Positions 52,661-61,516 of a stretch of 61,953 nucleotides of DNA are shown piece by piece. The translations under genes and the position numbers were made by a program. How positions within the stretch are numbered: the first letter of the stretch is position 1; each line of letters begins with the position of its first letter. This DNA is from a virus, in IMG/VR virus record IMGVR_UViG_3300045988_087611. One strand, written 5' to 3'. The notes below the pieces were generated by a model. It was given only the letters and a program-made list of their open reading frames with translations. It did not search any database and was not told the origin of the DNA.

Positions 52661-53014
52661 ATGACTTTTGACATCACCGCTATTATTGAGGCCATCCTTG
52701 CCCTTGCGGGCGCGGTCATTACCTGCGTCCTGATCCCTTACATCAAGAGCAAGACCACCACCGAGCAGCAGAAGGAGATCAACGCCTGGGTGAAGATCGC
52801 CGTCACTGCCGCCGAGCAGATCTACAAGGGCCAGGGCCGGGGCGAGGAGAAGAAGGAGTATGTACTCGCATGGCTCCGGGAGCACGGCGTCACCGTGGAT
52901 GACAAGAAGTTGGATGCCATGATTGAGGCCGCGGTATATGAACTCACCAACAACGGGCTGATTGCCATTGAGCAGGGCATCGCCGTGGAGGGGGATAGCC
53001 ATGACGCCGGTTGA
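52661..53014 (+). CDS. Holin (LL-H family-like)
   Basis: N-terminal TM IIEAILALAGAVITCVLIPYI, then ...KEYVLAWLREHG... It sits directly upstream of the endolysin. Confidence 0.7.
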   Translation: MTFDITAIIEAILALAGAVITCVLIPYIKSKTTTEQQKEINAWVKIAVTAAEQIYKGQGRGEEKKEYVLAWLREHGVTVDDKKLDAMIEAAVYELTNNGLIAIEQGIAVEGDSHDAG

Positions 53015-53816
53015 GAAACTTTTGGCAACCGCCCGGGCGGAGATCGGCTACATCGAGAAGAAGTCCAATGCCCAACTCGACGATAAGACGGCCAACGCCG
53101 GGGATAAGAACTGGAACAAGTATGCCCGGGACTTGGATGAACTGGGCCGGGTCTACAATGGCAAGAAGAACGGCTACAACTGGTGCGACATCTTCGCTGA
53201 CTGGTGTTTCATCCACACCTTCGGTTTTGAAGTAGGGATGAAACTGCTGTGCCAGGCGGAGAAGGGGGTGGGGGCCGGATGCACCGGCTCCGCCAACTAC
53301 TACAAGCAAATGGGCCAGTTCCACACCAAAAACCCCCAGCCCGGTGACCAGATTTTCTTCACCAACGACAGCGGCAAGACGATGTACCACACCGGAATTG
53401 TGGAGAAGGTGGCCGGAGGCCGGGTCTACACCATCGAGGGAAACACAAGTTCGCTCCCCGGCGTCGTAGAGAACGGCGGATGTGTCCGGGACAAGAGCTA
53501 TTCGCTCTCCTATGCCAAAATCGGCGGCTATGGCCGCCCTGACTTTTCTATCGTGGAGGATGATGACGACATGGATCAGACCAAGTTCAACGAGATGTTC
53601 AAGACGGCCATGGCTGCCCACCAGCGTGAGCTCATGGACAACGACTGCGGCGAGTGGAGCCGAGAGGCCCGGGAGTGGGCTATTAGCGTGGGCCTGTTTG
53701 CTGGCAACGGAACCACCGCCGACGGCCAGCCCAACTATATGTGGGCCAGTCCTCTGACCCGTGAGCAGGCGGCCCAGCTTTTCTATCGGTTTGCCCAGCA
53801 ACACGGGCTTGTCTGA
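53001..53816 (+). CDS. Endolysin with a CHAP/NlpC-P60-type amidase domain and a C-terminal wall-binding region
   Basis: YNWCDIFADWCF (catalytic Cys context) and MYHTGIVEKV (His). ATG at 53001. Confidence 0.75.
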   Translation: MTPVEKLLATARAEIGYIEKKSNAQLDDKTANAGDKNWNKYARDLDELGRVYNGKKNGYNWCDIFADWCFIHTFGFEVGMKLLCQAEKGVGAGCTGSANYYKQMGQFHTKNPQPGDQIFFTNDSGKTMYHTGIVEKVAGGRVYTIEGNTSSLPGVVENGGCVRDKSYSLSYAKIGGYGRPDFSIVEDDDDMDQTKFNEMFKTAMAAHQRELMDNDCGEWSREAREWAISVGLFAGNGTTADGQPNYMWASPLTREQAAQLFYRFAQQHGLV

Positions 53817-54178
53817 TGGAGTCCGGCAAGAGACTGGCCCCCCGGAAAGGCGGCTTCTCTGCTCTCCTGGAGCGCCTGGGCGTCACCAACTGCCTCGGTT
53901 TCTTGCTGGTGTTCCTGTTGCTTCTGGGCCTAGCCGGCGGTTTTATCCTGGCTGTGCTGAGCATCAAGTACCAGTACACCGGCGCCCTGGCTTGCTGGAC
54001 GGTGGTATTTACCCCAATCGGCACGGCCATCTCCATTGTGCTTGTGCGCATCGTGGATAAATCCAGAGCGGAGAATACTGGCGCAGACGGAGAAGGCATC
54101 AAATATGCGGCCGCCAAAGCCTCCAACTTTGTCCAGACCCAGGAGCCGGAAGGCTCAATCGACAGCCCGGCAATCTAA
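53816..54178 (+). CDS. Two-TM membrane protein (lysis accessory)
   Basis: CLGFLLVFLLLLGLAGGFILAVL and ACWTVVFTPIGTAISIVLV. ATGA-type coupling to the endolysin. Confidence 0.5.
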   Translation: MESGKRLAPRKGGFSALLERLGVTNCLGFLLVFLLLLGLAGGFILAVLSIKYQYTGALACWTVVFTPIGTAISIVLVRIVDKSRAENTGADGEGIKYAAAKASNFVQTQEPEGSIDSPAI

Positions 54179-54180
54179 AA

Positions 54181-54219
54181 AGGACGCCCCCGCCAGCCGA
54201 AAGCCAGCGAGGGCGTCCT
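54181..54219 (+). terminator. Hairpin after the lysis operon
   Basis: AGGACGCCC...GGGCGTCCT. No clear U-tract. Confidence 0.4.
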
Positions 54220-54224
54220 ACATG

Positions 54225-54253
54225 TTGACATTTTGAGGGAAAACCGCTATACT
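54225..54253 (+). promoter_or_regulatory. Sigma-70-type promoter of the antitoxin sRNA
   Basis: TTGACA (54225-30), 17-bp spacer, TATACT (54248-53). Confidence 0.65.
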
Positions 54254-54259
54254 AAAGAT

Positions 54260-54353
54260 AACGAGGGCGCCGCCGGTAGACGGTCAACCCCCTGTTAGGA
54301 CTTTGAAGTGATCGCCGTACTTGTCAGGGTGCCGGCGGTCACTTCTTTTTGTT
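54260..54353 (+). ncRNA. Candidate type I antitoxin sRNA (~90 nt), convergent with the toxin mRNA
   Basis: Bounded by the promoter above and the terminator GTGATCGCCG-N15-CGGCGGTCAC+TTCTTTTTGTT (54308-54353). It overlaps the toxin stop and 3' region. Confidence 0.55.
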
Positions 54354-54425
54354 GGCCATCAGAAAGAGGCCGATAATACCCACGACTAAAATGCCGGTCT
54401 GAATGAGATCGGAATAAGTAACCAT
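54339..54425 (-). CDS. 28-aa hydrophobic type I toxin (holin-like toxin, Hol-Tox-type)
   Basis: Not in the ORF track. MVTYSDLIQTGILVVGIIGLFLMANKKK. RBS AAAGGGGGG lies 8 nt upstream. Confidence 0.65.
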   Translation of the reverse strand: MVTYSDLIQTGILVVGIIGLFLMANKKK

Positions 54426-54519
54426 TGGGCAGCCCCCCTTTCACGAAGATCAGGGGACAAAGAAGCTGCCCCCCGTTATGGGGGCCGACCGCCTACCGTA
54501 TATCGGCAGCGCCACGGTC

Positions 54520-54548
54520 AGAATACCACGAATTCCCCCAAAAAGCAA
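54520..54548 (-). promoter_or_regulatory. Promoter of the toxin mRNA
   Basis: On the minus strand: TTGCTT (54548-43), 17-bp spacer, TATTCT (54525-20). This gives an ~87-nt 5' UTR in which CCCCT can pair with the SD AGGGG. Confidence 0.5.
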
Positions 54549-54574
54549 GGCTCGCTTTCTTGGACACTCTGAAC

Positions 54575-54616
54575 AAAGGCCACCGGATGATTTTGTGTAT
54601 CATTTCGGTGGCCTTT
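54575..54616. terminator. Long hairpin between the toxin promoter and the accessory operon promoter
   Basis: AAAGGCCACCG...CGGTGGCCTTT with inner ATGAT/ATCAT pairing. Confidence 0.5.
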
Positions 54617-54620
54617 CTTC

Positions 54621-54650
54621 TTGACTTATAAACCAATGGCGGTTTATAAT
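54621..54650 (+). promoter_or_regulatory. Promoter of the accessory-gene operon
   Basis: TTGACT (54621-26), 18-bp spacer, TATAAT (54645-50). Confidence 0.6.
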
Positions 54651-54826
54651 TAGGGCACAAGGCAAGGGAAACGCCTGAAGGATAAAACAGAATGCGACAG
54701 TGAAAGCCGGGCCGGAAGCGGACACAGCTCCGGGGATGGCCGGCAGGCGGTAACGGCTGCGAAAGGTAACCTTCAGGCCCCCGGGCCTTGGACAGAAAAC
54801 TTGAGTGCCGCCCGGAGGAAAAGAAA
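54651..54826 (+). promoter_or_regulatory. ~175-nt GC-rich structured 5' leader (candidate cis-regulatory RNA)
   Basis: Long-range pairing CCTGAAGG (54675-82) with CCTTCAGG (54770-77) encloses GCCGG/CCGGC helices. No ORF. Confidence 0.35.
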
Positions 54827-55027
54827 ATGAAAATCTATGTCCGCGACTTTAACTGCAAGAAGAAATACTTTGACACCCTGAATGACGCGGTAAAATTCAT
54901 CCGCAGATACAGTAAGCCCAACGGCAAGGGGTACACACTCTGGGTCGAGGATAGCACCGGAGTTCACAGGGTCGGATTTTTCCGCAAGGACGGCAAAAAA
55001 TTAGTAAAGACCGGCTGGAGGCAATAA
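54827..55027 (+). CDS. Hypothetical small basic protein
   Basis: ATG at 54827 after GGAGGAAAAG, inside ORF 54788..55027. Confidence 0.45.
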   Translation: MKIYVRDFNCKKKYFDTLNDAVKFIRRYSKPNGKGYTLWVEDSTGVHRVGFFRKDGKKLVKTGWRQ

Positions 55028-55033
55028 ACCACC

Positions 55034-55056
55034 CCCGCCCCGGAGGTACGAAGGCA
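55034..55056 (+). repeat. Start-associated conserved leader, copy A
   Basis: CCCGCCCCGGAGGT-ACGAAGGCA, 15 nt upstream of the ATG at 55071. Confidence 0.8.
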
Positions 55057-55070
55057 GAAGGAGGAAAACC

Positions 55071-55229
55071 ATGGTAGCCTATTACGAGAACGAAGCCGCC
55101 GTTGACACCGCTCTGAAGAAGGCGAAGACGCCAGAGGAAGTTCTGAAGATTGCCCACGACCTGGAACAGCGTGAGGCGCCACACCACTGGATACAAAAGG
55201 CCATGTCCGTTTACTGCTCTATGTTCTGA
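55071..55229 (+). CDS. 52-aa hypothetical protein
   Basis: Not in the ORF track. RBS AAGGAGGA. MVAYYENEAAVDTALKKAKTPEEVLKIAHD... Confidence 0.45.
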   Translation: MVAYYENEAAVDTALKKAKTPEEVLKIAHDLEQREAPHHWIQKAMSVYCSMF

Positions 55230-55245
55230 CCCAAACACCTCAACA

Positions 55246-55269
55246 CCCGCCCCGGAGGTCACGAGGGCA
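55246..55269 (+). repeat. Start-associated conserved leader, copy B
   Basis: CCCGCCCCGGAGGTCACGAGGGCA upstream of the ATG at 55284. Confidence 0.8.
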
Positions 55270-55283
55270 GAAAGGAACACACT

Positions 55284-55580
55284 ATGAAAAAGACCTACAT
55301 CGTGCATAAGTGCCTTGACCCTATGGCCGTCCGGGGCCTCTGCATTCATCAGAACTGGTACACCAGAGGCACCACCGCGGAATATGAGAAGATGCTTCAA
55401 AGCCTCTTGGACGAGCACCACATGAGCCGGGACAACATCACTGACCAGGACATTATCGCCTTGGCGGAGGACATCGCAGAGCACAGCGACCTGGAAGACC
55501 TGGAGCCGGAAGCCGATGCCGTGGCCTGTATCGCTTTCGAGCTGGCCCGGCTGGTAACTACCATTTTTGAAGCGGTTTGA
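55284..55580 (+). CDS. Hypothetical acidic protein
   Basis: 98-aa ORF. Confidence 0.5.
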   Translation: MKKTYIVHKCLDPMAVRGLCIHQNWYTRGTTAEYEKMLQSLLDEHHMSRDNITDQDIIALAEDIAEHSDLEDLEPEADAVACIAFELARLVTTIFEAV

Positions 55581-56556: not shown

Positions 56557-57357
56557 ATGTCAATAGGACGCCAAGACTATGAGGAGCGCAGAGAGGCCCG
56601 AGCCGACCGCCTGGAGGAGCGGGCTCGGAAGGCCGCCGGGAAGGCTGCCGACGCCTTCTGCCGCTCCGAGGACGCCGTGAGGGGCATTCCAGCGGGGCAG
56701 CCCATCCTTCCCGGAGCCCGAGGAATCCCCCAGCGGAAGGCACAGGAGCGTTCCTGGAGCCTCATGGGGAAAAGCGTGGAGAATGACCAAAAAGCCGCTT
56801 ACCTCCAAGGTCGGGCAGACGCCACCCGGGGTAACACCGCTATCAGCAGCGACGATCCGGAGGCCGTGGAAAAGCTGGAGGCAAAGCTAAAGGCCCTGCA
56901 GGACGCCCAAGAGAGGGACAAGGCCCTGAACGCCTACTATCGGAAGCATAAGACCGTCAAGGGCTTTCCGGGGATCAGCGATGCCCAAGCTGCCAAAGTA
57001 GACGCCAGACTGGCCGAGCTGCGAGAGGCGTTGCGCCGCCCCGCCCCCGCCTTTCAACTATCAAACCGGAACGCCGAAATCAACCGGCTGAAAAAACGCC
57101 TTCAGCAGCTCCAGGCAGTGGACGAGATGGAGCACATCGAGATTTCCTTCCCCGGGGGGCTCCTGACTACCAATGAGGAAATCAACCGGGTGCAGATCAT
57201 CTTTGATGACACCCCAGATGAGGCCACACGGGCGAAGCTGAAAGCCAATGGGTTCCGCTGGGCCCCCAGTGAGGGAGCGTGGCAGACGCAGCGGACGCCG
57301 GCGGCCCTGGCCCGCGCAAAGTGGCTGCTCGGTATTACAGAGGAAGGGGGAAACTGA
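56557..57357 (+). CDS. DUF3560-like protein
   Basis: C-terminus RVQIIFDDTPDEATRAKLKANGFRWAPSEGAWQ matches the DUF3560 pattern common on plasmids and ICEs (from memory). Confidence 0.5.
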   Translation: MSIGRQDYEERREARADRLEERARKAAGKAADAFCRSEDAVRGIPAGQPILPGARGIPQRKAQERSWSLMGKSVENDQKAAYLQGRADATRGNTAISSDDPEAVEKLEAKLKALQDAQERDKALNAYYRKHKTVKGFPGISDAQAAKVDARLAELREALRRPAPAFQLSNRNAEINRLKKRLQQLQAVDEMEHIEISFPGGLLTTNEEINRVQIIFDDTPDEATRAKLKANGFRWAPSEGAWQTQRTPAALARAKWLLGITEEGGN

Positions 57358-57885
57358 ATGCCTATCGAGAGATTGAAGTATGAAACCATCCACCTGAAGG
57401 ACGGGCGGAACGCCGTGTTGAGCACGGCCCGCCTCCCCTCCGGGGAATATGAAACCATGCTGCTGGGCCAGGACGGAGACGAGATTGTGTCGGCAAAGTC
57501 CGCCGGCGAGGAAGAGGCCCTGGCAACCTTCCAGTATTTCAAGATGGTATATTCGGCCCCGGTTCTGACGGGCCGATACAAGAAGCTGTCCGAAGACCTG
57601 AAGGCCGCCTTTGCCTATGGCCGGGAGCACCAAGGGACGGACGATGGAGGCACCAGTAACTTCGACGCCCCGACCATCCACCTCCGGGGATGGAGCCGGA
57701 AGATGGTCGAGGCCGCCGCTGCGGCCGCCGGCGGGAGCTGCTCATTCTGGAACCTCTGCGGCAGTTATATCTTCCCTGTCCCTGGAACGGGGCAAGGAAA
57801 CACCCGGACGGCCGCAGCAGAGGCGGCCGGTGATTACCTGAAGGAACTCGGCTATGATACCGGAATGTACTATCAGATGGATTGA
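57358..57885 (+). CDS. Hypothetical protein
   Basis: 175-aa ORF, TGAATG-coupled. Confidence 0.5.
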   Translation: MPIERLKYETIHLKDGRNAVLSTARLPSGEYETMLLGQDGDEIVSAKSAGEEEALATFQYFKMVYSAPVLTGRYKKLSEDLKAAFAYGREHQGTDDGGTSNFDAPTIHLRGWSRKMVEAAAAAAGGSCSFWNLCGSYIFPVPGTGQGNTRTAAAEAAGDYLKELGYDTGMYYQMD

Positions 57886-57897
57886 GGAGATGCCACC

Positions 57898-58449
57898 ATG
57901 ACAGAACGTGAACGTCTGCTGGAAAAGCTGATGAAAGTGAAAGCCCTCGCCGACCGCGGCGAGGGCGGAGAGCGGGAGAGCGCCGAGCGCACCCTAGCCG
58001 CTTTGATGGAGCGGTATGGCATCACCGAGGCCGACCTGGAGGACAACCAGGTTTCCACCCACTGGATCAGATACAAAACGGTATGGGAGAAGAAGCTCCT
58101 CCACCAACTGGCCTATATGTATCTGGGAGAAGGGAACTCCTTTGGCTGTGTTGGAACTTACACAGGGCGCAGCCGAAAGAAGGTCGGGATCAAATGCACT
58201 CCGGCGCAGTACATCGAGATTGAGGCAGATTTTGCTTTCTACTCTGCGGCCATGGAGGAAGAAATGGGCATTTTCTACTCGGCATTCCTTCAGAAAAACA
58301 ATCTGTTCCCTCCCCCGGAGCTTGCCAGGGAGAACACCGAAGAGGAAATCGCAGAGGCTATGGACTTGGAGCGCCTCGCTAAAATCAGCGCCATGATGGA
58401 CGGAATAGAGCAACACACCCGCCACAAGGCTATCGAAAGCCACCAATGA
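57898..58449 (+). CDS. DUF2786-like protein
   Basis: N-terminus LLEKLMKVKALADRGEGGERESAERTLAALMERYGI fits the DUF2786 pattern. Confidence 0.45.
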   Translation: MTERERLLEKLMKVKALADRGEGGERESAERTLAALMERYGITEADLEDNQVSTHWIRYKTVWEKKLLHQLAYMYLGEGNSFGCVGTYTGRSRKKVGIKCTPAQYIEIEADFAFYSAAMEEEMGIFYSAFLQKNNLFPPPELARENTEEEIAEAMDLERLAKISAMMDGIEQHTRHKAIESHQ

Positions 58450-58464
58450 AAGGAGAAGTTGAAC

Positions 58465-59397
58465 ATGGATATGTTGAGAGATCGGATCGCCGGCGCCCTC
58501 TACGGGGTAGCCGTAGGGGATGCCCTGGGCGGGCCCCTGGAGTTTATGAGCGCAGCAGAAATCAACCGTCAACATGGGTGGGTTTCCACCATGCTGGGCG
58601 GTGGTTGGTTGGGTCTGCGCCCTGGTGAGACCACAGACGACACCGCCATGACACTAGCCGTGGCTGAAGGAATTATGGAGCGCCCAGAGGCCCCAATCCA
58701 GGACATCGGCCGCCGGTTTATCCGGTGGGCAGAAAGTGGCCCAAAGGACATCGGTGGAGCCTGTGCATGGAGCATCAGGAATGCAAAACGGATTGGAGGC
58801 GGGGCGCCGACCACCGAAGACTGGGAAAATGCCGCAGCGGCATACCAGTTACAGGTCGCCGCTCCTGTCGAGGGAAACGGAGCTCTCATGCGAACGATTT
58901 ACCCCGCTTTGTACTATCCCAATCACTCAAAGGCCGAGTATTGGGCCATGAAAATCGCTAGAATGACCCACGCCGGCCTCCGTTCTACCGAGGCTTGCAT
59001 TTTATATTCCCGCATGGTAAACTTAATAACAGCATCGAAAAGTCAACAGCAGGCCTCCCGGGAATTTCTGAAGGAACACTGCGAAGCCGTCAAGGAATAT
59101 CGGGACGCAGCCTCCGGAAAAGAAGTTGCTCCCGCTGGCGGCGGTTGGGTTGTGGACAGTATGAGGATCGCCGTCGGTAGCACGGCGAATACATCATCTT
59201 TCCGGGAAGCCGTCACCATGGCCGTGAACCTCGGCGGAGACGCCGACACCAATGGAGCCATCACCGGAGGCCTGGCCGGCGCCCTGTACGGTTTTCAGAC
59301 CATCCCCAAGGAATGGGTATCCGCTCTATCCACGCACGATAGGGAGCGCCTGGACGCCGCTGTGGACGCTGCGATGGAGAGCCGAATGACTAAATAG
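58465..59397 (+). CDS. ADP-ribosylglycohydrolase (DraG/ARH family)
   Basis: GALYGVAVGDALGGPLEF, TTDDTAMTLA, GNGALMR and GGDADTNGAITGGLAGALYG. ATG at 58465 after AAAGGAG. Confidence 0.88.
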   Translation: MDMLRDRIAGALYGVAVGDALGGPLEFMSAAEINRQHGWVSTMLGGGWLGLRPGETTDDTAMTLAVAEGIMERPEAPIQDIGRRFIRWAESGPKDIGGACAWSIRNAKRIGGGAPTTEDWENAAAAYQLQVAAPVEGNGALMRTIYPALYYPNHSKAEYWAMKIARMTHAGLRSTEACILYSRMVNLITASKSQQQASREFLKEHCEAVKEYRDAASGKEVAPAGGGWVVDSMRIAVGSTANTSSFREAVTMAVNLGGDADTNGAITGGLAGALYGFQTIPKEWVSALSTHDRERLDAAVDAAMESRMTK

Positions 59398-59837: not shown

Positions 59838-61001
59838 TTATGGAACCGGGCCTTTTTTGGCCTCTTCCAGCTCCAGCGCCTCGGCAATCGAGAGCGGTGC
59901 CGGAGCCGCGGCATCCACCCTTCTGGCAGGGGCATGGCGCTCCAAGTCTTGCACCAGTGACTCCATCTTATCCGGGTAGAGGTGGGTATAGGTCGCCATC
60001 GCCACTTCCACTGTGTCCCCCAGGCGCTCGGCAACGGCCACAATGGAATATCCAAGCTCCACCAGCAGGGCGGCGTGGCTGTGACGCAGATCATGGATGC
60101 GGATGCGCTGCACCCCTGCGGCCGCCGCGGCACGGTCGAGCTCCCGATTGAGGGTGCCGTGACCAAAGTAGAATATGCGCTCGTCTGGCCCAATTTCATA
60201 GAGGGCGCCGATGTACTGCTGCACCTCGTCATATAGGAAAGCCGGCATGGCGAGATCGCGGACGCTGTTGTCAGTTTTAGTGGGGCCCGGATCGTCCTCC
60301 CCGTTTCTGCGGTGGTGCGTCTTGACGATGTGCGCCACCTTCGACGGCCGGATGTCTGCCGGCGTCAATGCCAGGCACTCGCCCACACGGAGGCCGAGCC
60401 AATACATGAGCTGGAAAGCCACCCGGAAAGCAGGCTTTTTCACCTCCGCCAGAGCGGCCTCAAATTCCGCCAGCGTCCAGAATTTCATGCGGCCCGCCTT
60501 CTTCTTCCCCATGAAGCCAGCCGGCAAGCATGGGTTCTGCCGCAGGCCATAGTACATGACGGCATAGTTCATAATGGCAGAAAGCCGGCTGTTGATGGAA
60601 CGGAGGTATGTGGGGGCATAGGGCTTTCCGGTCTTCGGGTTTGTCTTGGAGAGCAATTCATTCTGCCATTTTCGGATTGTAACGGCGTCGATTTTATCGA
60701 CCGGGAGCTGGCCGAAATACGGAAGCAGCCACCTGTTGATGATGTTGTCCTGGGCTCCCCGGGTCGTGTCCCGGACGCGGTGATCCGCGTCCTCCTGGTA
60801 TAGCTCCACCAGAGATGCAAAGGACATGTCGCAGCTCTGACTATTTTTTAGCAGGAACTGCCGCTCATATTCCTGCGCTTCCCGGCGCAGCGCAAAGCCC
60901 TCCTTCTTTTTCAGACGTCGGGCCCCTGTCCAGTCAGTATAGCGGAAGGCTGCATACCATTTGATTTTCCCGTCCTTTGTTTTATAGGATTTTACAGACA
61001 T
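59838..61001 (-). CDS. int: Tyrosine integrase
   Basis: C-terminal catalytic region RIHDLRHSHAALL...ATYTHLY. N-terminal arm-binding-like SVKSYKTKDGKIKWYAAFRY. ATG at 61001 inside ORF 59838..61055. Confidence 0.9.
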   Translation of the reverse strand: MSVKSYKTKDGKIKWYAAFRYTDWTGARRLKKKEGFALRREAQEYERQFLLKNSQSCDMSFASLVELYQEDADHRVRDTTRGAQDNIINRWLLPYFGQLPVDKIDAVTIRKWQNELLSKTNPKTGKPYAPTYLRSINSRLSAIMNYAVMYYGLRQNPCLPAGFMGKKKAGRMKFWTLAEFEAALAEVKKPAFRVAFQLMYWLGLRVGECLALTPADIRPSKVAHIVKTHHRRNGEDDPGPTKTDNSVRDLAMPAFLYDEVQQYIGALYEIGPDERIFYFGHGTLNRELDRAAAAAGVQRIRIHDLRHSHAALLVELGYSIVAVAERLGDTVEVAMATYTHLYPDKMESLVQDLERHAPARRVDAAAPAPLSIAEALELEEAKKGPVP

Positions 61002-61051
61002 ACTGCGCCCCCAAAACAGAGGCCCTGGCCCGACACGGCCAGGGCCTTCTT

Positions 61052-61516
61052 TCACTCTTCATCGGCCTTCTCGTCACCCGCAGCGCCTTCCACTTCACCT
61101 TTCCCGCGTTTCCGGTTGGCATCAGTGAGCTGGAGCATGTCTATATATTCAAGCAGCCGCCGGCGGGATTTCGTGGAAAGACTGATATACTGGCGAGCGA
61201 TAGACAGCGCCTCTGGGTGGGTAGAGCAAATTACCAGGGCCTTCCGATCCTCTTCAGATAGGTTCCCGGCACTGCCCAGCAGTGCGGCGATATGGGGTGC
61301 GGAATAGGTTGTCCCCCTTTTCCTTTCATCGGACAGGCCGAGGATATAGTCAACAGATACGTCAAAAATGAGAGCAAGCATCCGAAGCGTACCTTCAGAC
61401 AAGCCGCTCTTTTCATTTTCGTACTTGGAAATGACAGCCGGCTTTACTCCGAGCCGGGATGCGAGTTCGCGTTGAGACATATCGGCCTCTTCTCGCAGCG
61501 CACGAATACGGTTCAT
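61052..61516 (-). CDS. cI-like XRE-family repressor
   Basis: HTH MSQRELASRLGVKPAVISKYENEK. Divergent from the cro-like gene. Confidence 0.75.
   Translation of the reverse strand: MNRIRALREEADMSQRELASRLGVKPAVISKYENEKSGLSEGTLRMLALIFDVSVDYILGLSDERKRGTTYSAPHIAALLGSAGNLSEEDRKALVICSTHPEALSIARQYISLSTKSRRRLLEYIDMLQLTDANRKRGKGEVEGAAGDEKADEE

Follow-up and report, generated by a model that had tools for sequence, protein, structure and literature searches.

A probable type I toxin-antitoxin module of the TxpA/BsrG/SprG kind, with a predicted bsrG/SR4-like mRNA switch, in a temperate phage

What is the function of a very short minus-strand open reading frame (ORF) toward which a near-consensus promoter fires from the opposite strand? 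The question is raised by the IMG/VR virus record IMGVR_UViG_3300045988_087611, whose 61,953 nt are here called the window. An original prediction read the locus as a toxin-antitoxin system of type I, where a holin-like toxin is controlled by a convergent small RNA (sRNA), of the txpA/RatA or bsrG/SR4 kind. The peptide family, the architecture of the locus and a covarying long helix in the toxin mRNA support that assignment, and we consider it likely that the locus is a prophage-borne type I module of the TxpA/BsrG/SprG (Hol_Tox) kind with a bsrG/SR4-like switch. The sequence elements, their conservation, the selection on the coding sequence, the covariation of the helix and the assignment of the structures to one strand were all computed here. 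The elements of the module are as follows.

54520-54548, minus strand: toxin promoter, with the -35 box TTGCTT (54548-54543), a 17-nt spacer and the -10 box TATTCT (54525-54520), by sequence reading.
54480-54513, minus strand: 5' arm of the long helix (analogue of helix P1 of bsrG mRNA), nt 1-34 of the predicted mRNA; inverted repeat I1.
54426-54479, minus strand: switch region of the 5' untranslated region (UTR), with the G-run GGGGGGCAGC (54475-54466), the anti-Shine-Dalgarno (anti-SD) segment UGUCCCCUG (54460-54451) and the Shine-Dalgarno (SD) sequence GGGGGG (54438-54433), which is spaced 7 nt from the ATG.
54339-54425, minus strand: toxin ORF, 28 aa, MVTYSDLIQTGILVVGIIGLFLMANKKK, by ORF reading.
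54266-54292, minus strand: 3' arm of the long helix, lying within the toxin 3' UTR; the 5' stem-loop of the sRNA targets this same segment.
54176-54513, minus strand: predicted toxin mRNA, about 338-340 nt, its start taken from the -10 box and its end from the terminator.
54176-54219, minus strand: likely toxin mRNA terminator, an 18-bp stem (54219-54181) followed by UUUUU; the sole minus-strand terminator found by the scan.
54225-54253, plus strand: sRNA promoter TTGACA-17-TATACT, an 11/12 match, by promoter scan.
54260-54353, plus strand: predicted antisense RNA, about 93-94 nt with both ends inferred, comprising a 5' stem-loop (54260-54296), a single-stranded linker and the terminator hairpin.
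54305-54353, plus strand: intrinsic terminator of the sRNA, stem 54305-54317 with 54333-54345, followed by UUCUUUUUGUU; overlaps the stop and Lys codons of the toxin.

Most of these elements had been described in the original prediction and are borne out: the minus-strand ORF with its strong SD, the two promoters, and the hairpin with its U-tract lying over the toxin stop codon are all present. The antisense RNA, put earlier at about 90 nt and overlapping the toxin 3' end, is predicted at about 93 nt. The long helix that joins the two ends of the toxin mRNA did not figure there and was found here.

The window ORF has a single available start codon and encodes one hydrophobic helix (hydrophobic span L7-A24) with a C-terminal KKK. 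Against Pfam its sole match is Hol_Tox (PF16935), over the full length and with E = 0.0066. A Hol-Tox profile search had been suggested as a check, and the answer is divided: the match is full-length and relatives pass, but the window peptide scores 16.7 bits, under the gathering score of 23.3 bits. Sister peptides with the identical N-terminus TYSD[LF]IQTGI, which are 46-61% identical to the window peptide, score 28.5 and 25.5 bits, above the gathering score. Judged from sequence, the window peptide belongs to Hol_Tox by way of these close relatives, the peptide alone being sub-threshold. TxpA, BsrG and SprG1 reach 31-35 bits each with the same model, and the SprG1 sequence used was validated by its 83 bits against NCBIfam PepG1. 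These three characterised members of Hol_Tox are type I toxins (PMC2887945, PMC3834814).

Relatives of the module were sought with a degenerate DNA pattern back-translated from the N-terminus of the peptide, which matched 39 IMG/VR contigs and at least 120 stretches of species-representative genomes. The carriers, like all counts of modules and ORFs that follow (168, 143, 65, 78, 48 and 49), are among the matches listed, and they include Lachnospiraceae, Oscillospiraceae, Faecalibacterium, Acetatifactor, Roseburia inulinivorans, Flintibacter muris, Neglectibacter and Petralouisia. Cultured strains with a family member are Flintibacter muris DSM 110149 (L051), Neglectibacter caecimuris M00184 (L078), Roseburia inulinivorans DSM 16841 (L070) and Petralouisia muris NM01_1-7b (L113). 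When the C-terminal half was used for the pattern, a single contig matched, because that half is variable. The 168 ORF copies, nearly all of 26-33 aa and ending in clusters of K and R, fall into two clades, that of the window, called GIL (...QTGILxVGIIxLFxxANKKK), and a sister clade, called GIF (...QTGIFIVALxGLCYTIFKGKK). The ORF is accompanied by both flanking promoters in 143 non-identical modules. Conservation spans the interval from the toxin -35 to the sRNA -35, the last conserved block being TGTCAA, and the flanks beyond are unrelated.

The ORF behaves as a gene. Its variable sites cluster at third codon positions, and the ratio of nonsynonymous to synonymous polymorphism (pN/pS), computed from the ORF positions left free by the search pattern, is 0.30 and 0.19 in the two clades, so the ORF is under purifying selection. 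The locus had been called unannotated, which holds for the window's clade, whose commonest variant is annotated as 'hypothetical protein [Bacteriophage sp.]' and whose other members are hypothetical or not called; it does not hold for the sister clade, which the Prokaryotic Genome Annotation Pipeline (PGAP) names 'putative holin-like toxin'. Searches of GenBank phages by blastn with the locus and by tblastn with the peptide found nothing, and the window's exact peptide is absent from a collection of 15 billion proteins. We are dealing with a large, apparently unrecognised clade of a known toxin kind, which may overlap the 118 TxpA relatives of Fozo et al. 2010. There is also a third form, of 33 aa (genome contigs L103, L126 and L152), which ends in ...GLIDLVLRLIDADRNKRQ or ...GVIGLVLQFIKLDRDHRH; a mixed acidic and basic extension replaces the KKK, and the N-terminus, the promoters and the helix are retained.

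The two promoters differ in strength. That of the toxin has an extended -10 (TGgTATTCT, 54528-54520), a feature additional to the original description, and is weak by consensus; in most of the 143 modules a TTGnnn-17-TATnnT promoter lies 83-121 nt 5' of the ATG, and in the window's clade the mean match of the sense promoter is 7.9/12. The antisense promoter, by comparison, matches at 11/12 or better in 65/65 non-identical modules of the window's clade, among the matches listed, with its -10 ending 78-118 nt past the toxin stop; shuffled sequences reach at least 9/12 in 3%. Across 1.2 kb the scan finds 2 promoter-like sites, compared with an expectation of 0.6 by shuffling. Type I systems typically couple a strong promoter for the antitoxin with a weak one for the toxin.

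The spacers of the two promoters are themselves similar (TTTGGGGGAATTCGTGG and TTTTGAGGGAAAACCGC; 54225-54260 versus 54513-54548), and the 5' starts of the two RNAs are also alike. On sequence similarity, the module may have originated by an inverted duplication of a promoter and 5' element.

The terminator of the antisense RNA (repeat I7) has 13-nt arms that are 92% complementary, a 15-nt loop and a following TTCTTTTTGTT, and its 3' arm contains the toxin stop codon (54341-54339). The stems are 98% conserved, and 7 of their pairs have changes in both partners. Taken as sRNA, the hairpin shows 54 G·U against 10 A·C, and it is the stabler on that strand in 45/48 and 45/49 modules of the two clades. 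The G·U bias and the strand stability together argue that the hairpin is selected as the terminator of the sRNA. Because it lies over the stop and Lys codons, the predicted sRNA matches the final codons of the toxin mRNA and its 3' UTR with perfect complementarity. The DNA string AAT/AAC AAA AAG AAG TAA/TGA CCGC is near-invariant, owing to this dual coding of the toxin end and the sRNA terminator. In the window, the terminal Lys codons AAA AAG AAG and the stop (54339-54353) complement the 3' stem and U-tract of the terminator; the stop is TGA, not TAA, with a compensating T-to-C change in the partner arm.

The predicted sRNA folds with -39.6 kcal/mol (z = -2.6), a value equalled by 0/200 shuffles. 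Among the displayed folds, 22 per clade out of 96 unique sRNAs, the layout of 5' stem-loop, linker and terminator is alike in both clades despite their differing sequences; many GIF-clade sRNAs have an additional small hairpin within the linker. From sequence, then, a convergent sRNA gene with predicted transcripts would overlap the 3' end of the toxin gene. A different role for the plus-strand RNA, as a leader of the downstream genes, was rejected in view of its strong terminator and of the separate promoter of those genes at 54621-54650.

As for the toxin mRNA, the 262-nt RNA from 54513 to 54252 folds with -117.8 kcal/mol (z = -5.8; 0/200 shuffles equal it), and a long helix between the 5' end and the 3' UTR is present in both the minimum free energy (MFE) and the centroid folds. 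Between leader and 3' UTR, the duplex energy is near -60 kcal/mol in one clade and -54 in the other, where shuffles give -35 and -31 (z about -5 in both), and the sequences that form the helix differ between the clades. An alignment (A1) of 48 sequences of the window's clade was used to examine the long helix, the G-run:anti-SD hairpin and the terminator together. In this structure 89.1% of the cells are paired and 20 pairs are changed on both sides, one pair, for example, being UA in 23 sequences and CG in 19. The covariation is 0.204, compared with 0.144 for shuffles (0/500 reach the observed value) and 0.06-0.07 for slid partners. The sub-helices of the long helix itself are 98, 97.5 and 88% paired in A1, with 9 pairs changed on both sides.

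The mismatches of the long helix identify the strand: there are 143 G·U on the toxin strand and 19 on the opposite strand, the latter reading as A·C on the toxin strand. The sister clade replicates these results, with 86.3% paired versus 79.5%, 93 versus 33 double-change cells, and 148 G·U versus 60 A·C in the long helix. The bias and its replication indicate that the long helix is an RNA feature of the toxin mRNA and not a DNA repeat. A further repeat, I13 (54258-54267 with 54470-54479), was considered as an extension of the helix and set aside, as its strands run in an order that a single continuous helix cannot accommodate. In two relatives (L098:2634-2915 and L136:5784-6067), a perfect-hairpin insert of about 40 nt (GTGGGAAATCTC...GATTTCCCAC) splits the 5' arm, and the first 9 nt of the arm are absent from the extracted stretch; these may be natural variants with a disabled or altered helix.

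Since the helix lies in the toxin mRNA, that mRNA must extend at least to 54266. The sole minus-strand terminator is at 54219-54181, which gives a transcript of about 340 nt, with an 88-nt leader. The original estimate of about 250 nt should therefore probably be raised to some 340 nt (54513 to about 54176), as the transcript must reach the helix arm at 54292-54266. That arm is the complement of the sRNA 5' stem-loop. In sequence and in the modelled folds, the 5' end of the mRNA would thus pair with a 3' region whose 3' arm is complementary to the antitoxin, the arrangement of a P1-type helix.

How might such a helix affect translation? Along the leader come a C-run that ends the 5' arm, then the G-run, the anti-SD and the SD, and the anti-SD is able to pair with either the G-run or the SD in alternative folds. 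In the folding calculations, the G-run pairs the anti-SD when the long helix is formed. When the 3' arm is blocked, either by cofolding with the sRNA or by truncation, the C-run pairs the G-run and the anti-SD closes the SD. The G-run:anti-SD pairing is 88.8% paired, and the local leader helices, at 91% paired, are too conserved for a covariation signal. In the window's clade, the modelled probability of an unpaired SD is 0.33 in the free mRNA and 0.13 in the blocked one, with a difference in this direction in 43/48 modules. Even without the sRNA, the MFE fold keeps the SD paired, with coding and 3' sequences. As modelled, the leader-switch step is plausible and not established.

The geometry has a close precedent. 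In bsrG mRNA, mapped experimentally by Jahn and Brantl, nt 1-35 pair with nt 232-262 to form helix P1, whose 3' half is the part to which SR4 is complementary (PMC3834814). Bound SR4 releases the 5' end of bsrG mRNA and lengthens the SD helix from 4 to 8 bp, and it both blocks translation and brings about decay of the mRNA by RNase III (PMC3834814). The helix and the modelled switch have this same geometry, and the peptide is of the same family, which makes the present locus kin to bsrG/SR4 in its peptide as well as in its RNA logic. The likenesses to this system of the B. subtilis prophage SPbeta are a Hol_Tox toxin with an N-terminal xTYxxL, one helix and a KKK tail; a convergent antisense RNA, here predicted, that covers the toxin 3' end including the stop codon; a 5'-3' mRNA helix whose 3' arm is the antitoxin target; and a prophage location. 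The SD of bsrG lies in a stem that antitoxin binding tightens (PMC3834814), which may also be so here. The differences are that the peptide here has 28 aa, compared with 38 aa for BsrG; that the sRNA has about 93 nt and two stem-loops, compared with 183 nt and four for SR4; that the sRNA promoter lies inside the toxin transcription unit, whereas that of SR4 lies beyond the toxin terminator; that nucleotide similarity is undetectable, with no Rfam hit; and that the host here is of a high-GC gut Clostridia lineage.

Other systems are more distant. In sprG1/SprF1 of Staphylococcus aureus, the short form of SprG1 (MITISTMLQFGLFLIALIGL...) resembles the sister clade (MITYSDLIQTGIFIVALIGL...), the RNAs likewise overlap at their 3' ends, and the location is again a mobile element. 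Sister-clade peptides match NCBIfam PepG1 weakly (best E = 9e-5), with scores all far under the 70-bit cut-off, and sprG1 makes two peptides from alternative starts, compared with the one start here. The txpA/RatA system (B. subtilis skin element; EF3263 in E. faecalis) has a toxin of the same superfamily and an sRNA of about 100 nt that overlaps the toxin 3' UTR; TxpA, however, has 59 aa with a long C-terminal tail. As far as known, RatA acts solely through RNase III-dependent decay (PMC6563280). In hok/Sok and aapA1/IsoA1 of Gram-negative bacteria, a long-distance 5'-3' interaction of the mRNA also sets translation competence (PMC8594479, PMC3834814), but the toxins are unrelated and the antisense RNA pairs with the 5' region instead of with the 3' arm. 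The fold-back of hok is, moreover, inhibitory and is relieved by 3' processing.

By analogy with bsrG/SR4 we propose the following scheme, in which we infer the transcript ends, the toxicity, the direction of the switch, the role of RNase III and the biological role. The weak promoter would give a toxin mRNA of about 340 nt, and the near-consensus convergent promoter an sRNA of about 93 nt. In free mRNA, nt 1-34 would pair the far 3' UTR and the G-run would hold the anti-SD, leaving the SD less tightly closed. The sRNA would nucleate, probably, through its terminator loop and single-stranded linker, and once paired it would capture the 3' arm of the long helix. The released 5' arm would then refold locally and take the G-run, so that the anti-SD would shut the SD. 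The RNA duplex might also be a substrate for RNase III, and the antitoxin would then act doubly, by blocking translation and by promoting decay, as SR4 does on bsrG. Were the sRNA lost, the 28-residue membrane peptide would be made and the cell harmed, which would favour retention of the prophage.

Tandem copies of the module occur (L034, L053, L134 and L152). In L034 (4091-4347 and 4477-4735) and L053 (2733-2991 and 4100-4356), the leader, ORF, hairpin stem and helix arms of the two copies are 93-100% identical (97-100% for leader, ORF and stem), the hairpin loop about 41% and the linker about 31%. The pattern is less sharp in L134 (coding sequence 88%) and in L152 (83% in the leader switch, 67-69% in loop and linker). 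In bsrG/SR4, the loop and linker segments nucleate the pairing of antitoxin and mRNA. Because they are the first-contact segments there, the loop and linker may set antitoxin specificity here.

Several observations weigh against this assignment. The peptide's own Hol_Tox score is sub-threshold, as noted, it has no match in NCBIfam or PHROGs, and an hhalign comparison of the family with three known toxins is weak (probability 29%, register doubtful) and is not relied on. In the sister clade, the antisense promoter is usually TTGnnn-17-TATATT and reaches at least 9/12 in only 23/78 modules. A scan of 53500-55500 with all 4227 Rfam 15 models, type I antitoxin families included, matched no antitoxin family with E allowed as high as 10, and its hits are at chance level; over the hairpin the top one is ctRNA_pGA1, with 17.4 bits where 45 is the cut-off. 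The predicted gain in SD accessibility is modest, and in the sister clade (0.26 versus 0.21) it is nearly absent. Sequestration of the SD by the CCCCT segment, part of the original prediction, is compatible with the SD-closing anti-SD:SD helix, which is 93.5% paired, but lacks support from covariation, none of it significant in that helix. A hairpin past the sRNA -35 is found in some relatives (L008, L010 and L014) and is absent from most; on a crude test, only 37/115 flanks carry a terminator there, so a conserved toxin-mRNA terminator beyond the sRNA promoter was rejected. Being missing in most relatives, the toxin terminator is context-dependent and the 3' end of the mRNA uncertain. Finally, the counts and p-values ignore shared ancestry.

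The alternative that survives best keeps the module and reverses the sign of the helix. As in the hok fold-back or aapA1, the full-length mRNA would be inert and stable until 3' processing, and the sRNA would do no more than bring about decay of the duplex or mask the 3' end. Inhibition by fold-back is established for hok (cited in PMC3834814 and PMC8594479), and the modelling leaves room for it: with unpaired probabilities of 0.33 and 0.13, the SD is largely closed in either state, the free mRNA in its MFE fold pairs it with coding and 3' sequences, and the difference nearly vanishes in the sister clade. We nevertheless regard this reversal as rather unlikely, since the sRNA targets the 3' arm of the helix, which is the geometry of bsrG/SR4, where opening P1 tightens the closure of the SD (PMC3834814), and since a more open SD is predicted with the helix formed in 43/48 modules of the window's clade.

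A second alternative concerns the place of the module in the phage. The window is a temperate phage with nearly all its genes on the plus strand, among them those for a terminase, a Mu-F-like protein and a tape measure protein, and the module stands alone on the minus strand, with the lysis cassette on one side and, past the accessory genes that follow it, the integrase on the other. Its surroundings are these.

52661-53014: holin, lysis cassette.
52962-53816: CHAP endolysin, lysis cassette.
53816-54178: predicted membrane protein of 120 aa, its ATG (53816) at the endolysin stop codon.
54571-54585 and 54606-54620: 15-nt arms of hairpin I3, with T-rich tails on both strands.
54621-54650: promoter TTGACT-18-TATAAT, 11/12, directly after hairpin I3 and, like it, outside the conserved module.
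56557-57357: DUF3560 protein, an accessory gene between module and integrase.
58459-59397: ADP-ribosylglycohydrolase (212 bits), a further accessory gene between module and integrase.
59838-61055, minus strand: integrase.

With the holin, the endolysin and a membrane protein directly before it, a family name of 'holin-like', and a weak match of a sister peptide to a holin-annotated PHROG (E = 3.5e-4), the peptide could be taken for a part of phage lysis, a small holin or antiholin whose antisense RNA times lysis, and not for an addiction toxin. This is improbable, for the gene runs on the other strand from a promoter of its own to its own terminator, a canonical holin is already present in the phage, tandem copies exist, and TxpA, BsrG and SprG1, where characterised, are type I toxins (PMC2887945, PMC3834814). 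The commonest neighbours at the other loci are, besides, integrases and repressors: among 118 ORFs flanking other family members, phage integrase (14) and the Cro/CI-type helix-turn-helix (6) are the commonest Pfam families, and amidases number 2/118. Such neighbours fit a cargo gene of mobile elements, as bsrG, txpA and sprG1 are.

Least probable is that the inverted repeat and its flanks are a DNA-level feature (terminal repeats of a mobile element, or gene conversion of duplicated promoters) with an incidental ORF: imperfect inverted repeats with similar promoter spacers do bound the module, which occurs in many genomic contexts and in tandem, but the one-strand G·U bias (143 versus 19), opposite for the hairpin and not to be expected from homology at the DNA level, the energies that replicate in both clades, the codon-position bias, the pN/pS of 0.2-0.3 and the kept length of the ORF all argue against it.

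As for the neighbours themselves, the product of 53816-54178 has no significant match in Pfam, NCBIfam or PHROGs and may be a second component of the lysis cassette. The stretch 54571-54650 looks like a two-way insulator followed by the promoter of the downstream accessory genes, and the accessory genes of 56557-59397 could be anti-defence or counter-toxin cargo.

Work on type I systems has covered Bacilli, Staphylococcus, Enterococcus, C. difficile and enterobacteria. Of the remaining Clostridia, a 2019 review was able to name only a TxpA-like ORF in C. bolteae, from a 2010 in silico survey (PMC6563280). As the matches in at least 120 genome stretches and 39 viral contigs show, a BsrG/SprG-like module with a recognisable RNA partner is widespread among Lachnospiraceae, Oscillospiraceae and Faecalibacterium, in their prophages and genomes. 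It is tempting to go further and to see in these modules a very large, mostly unannotated BsrG/SprG-like radiation in prophages of the dominant gut Clostridia, in which loop and linker are fast-evolving determinants of specificity and the dual action through opening of P1 is ancestral to Hol_Tox. We offer this wider view tentatively, as the less likely case; if it were true, the diverging loops and linkers would keep co-resident copies orthogonal. The module may also fire when an infecting phage shuts off host transcription, as a prophage-encoded form of abortive infection. The finding extends a known mechanism and reveals no new one: the helix behind the dual action of SR4 is conserved, with covariation, far beyond Bacillus. 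The gains are a better annotation of gut phages, a choice of cultured carrier strains and a natural set of divergent pairs of sRNA and target.

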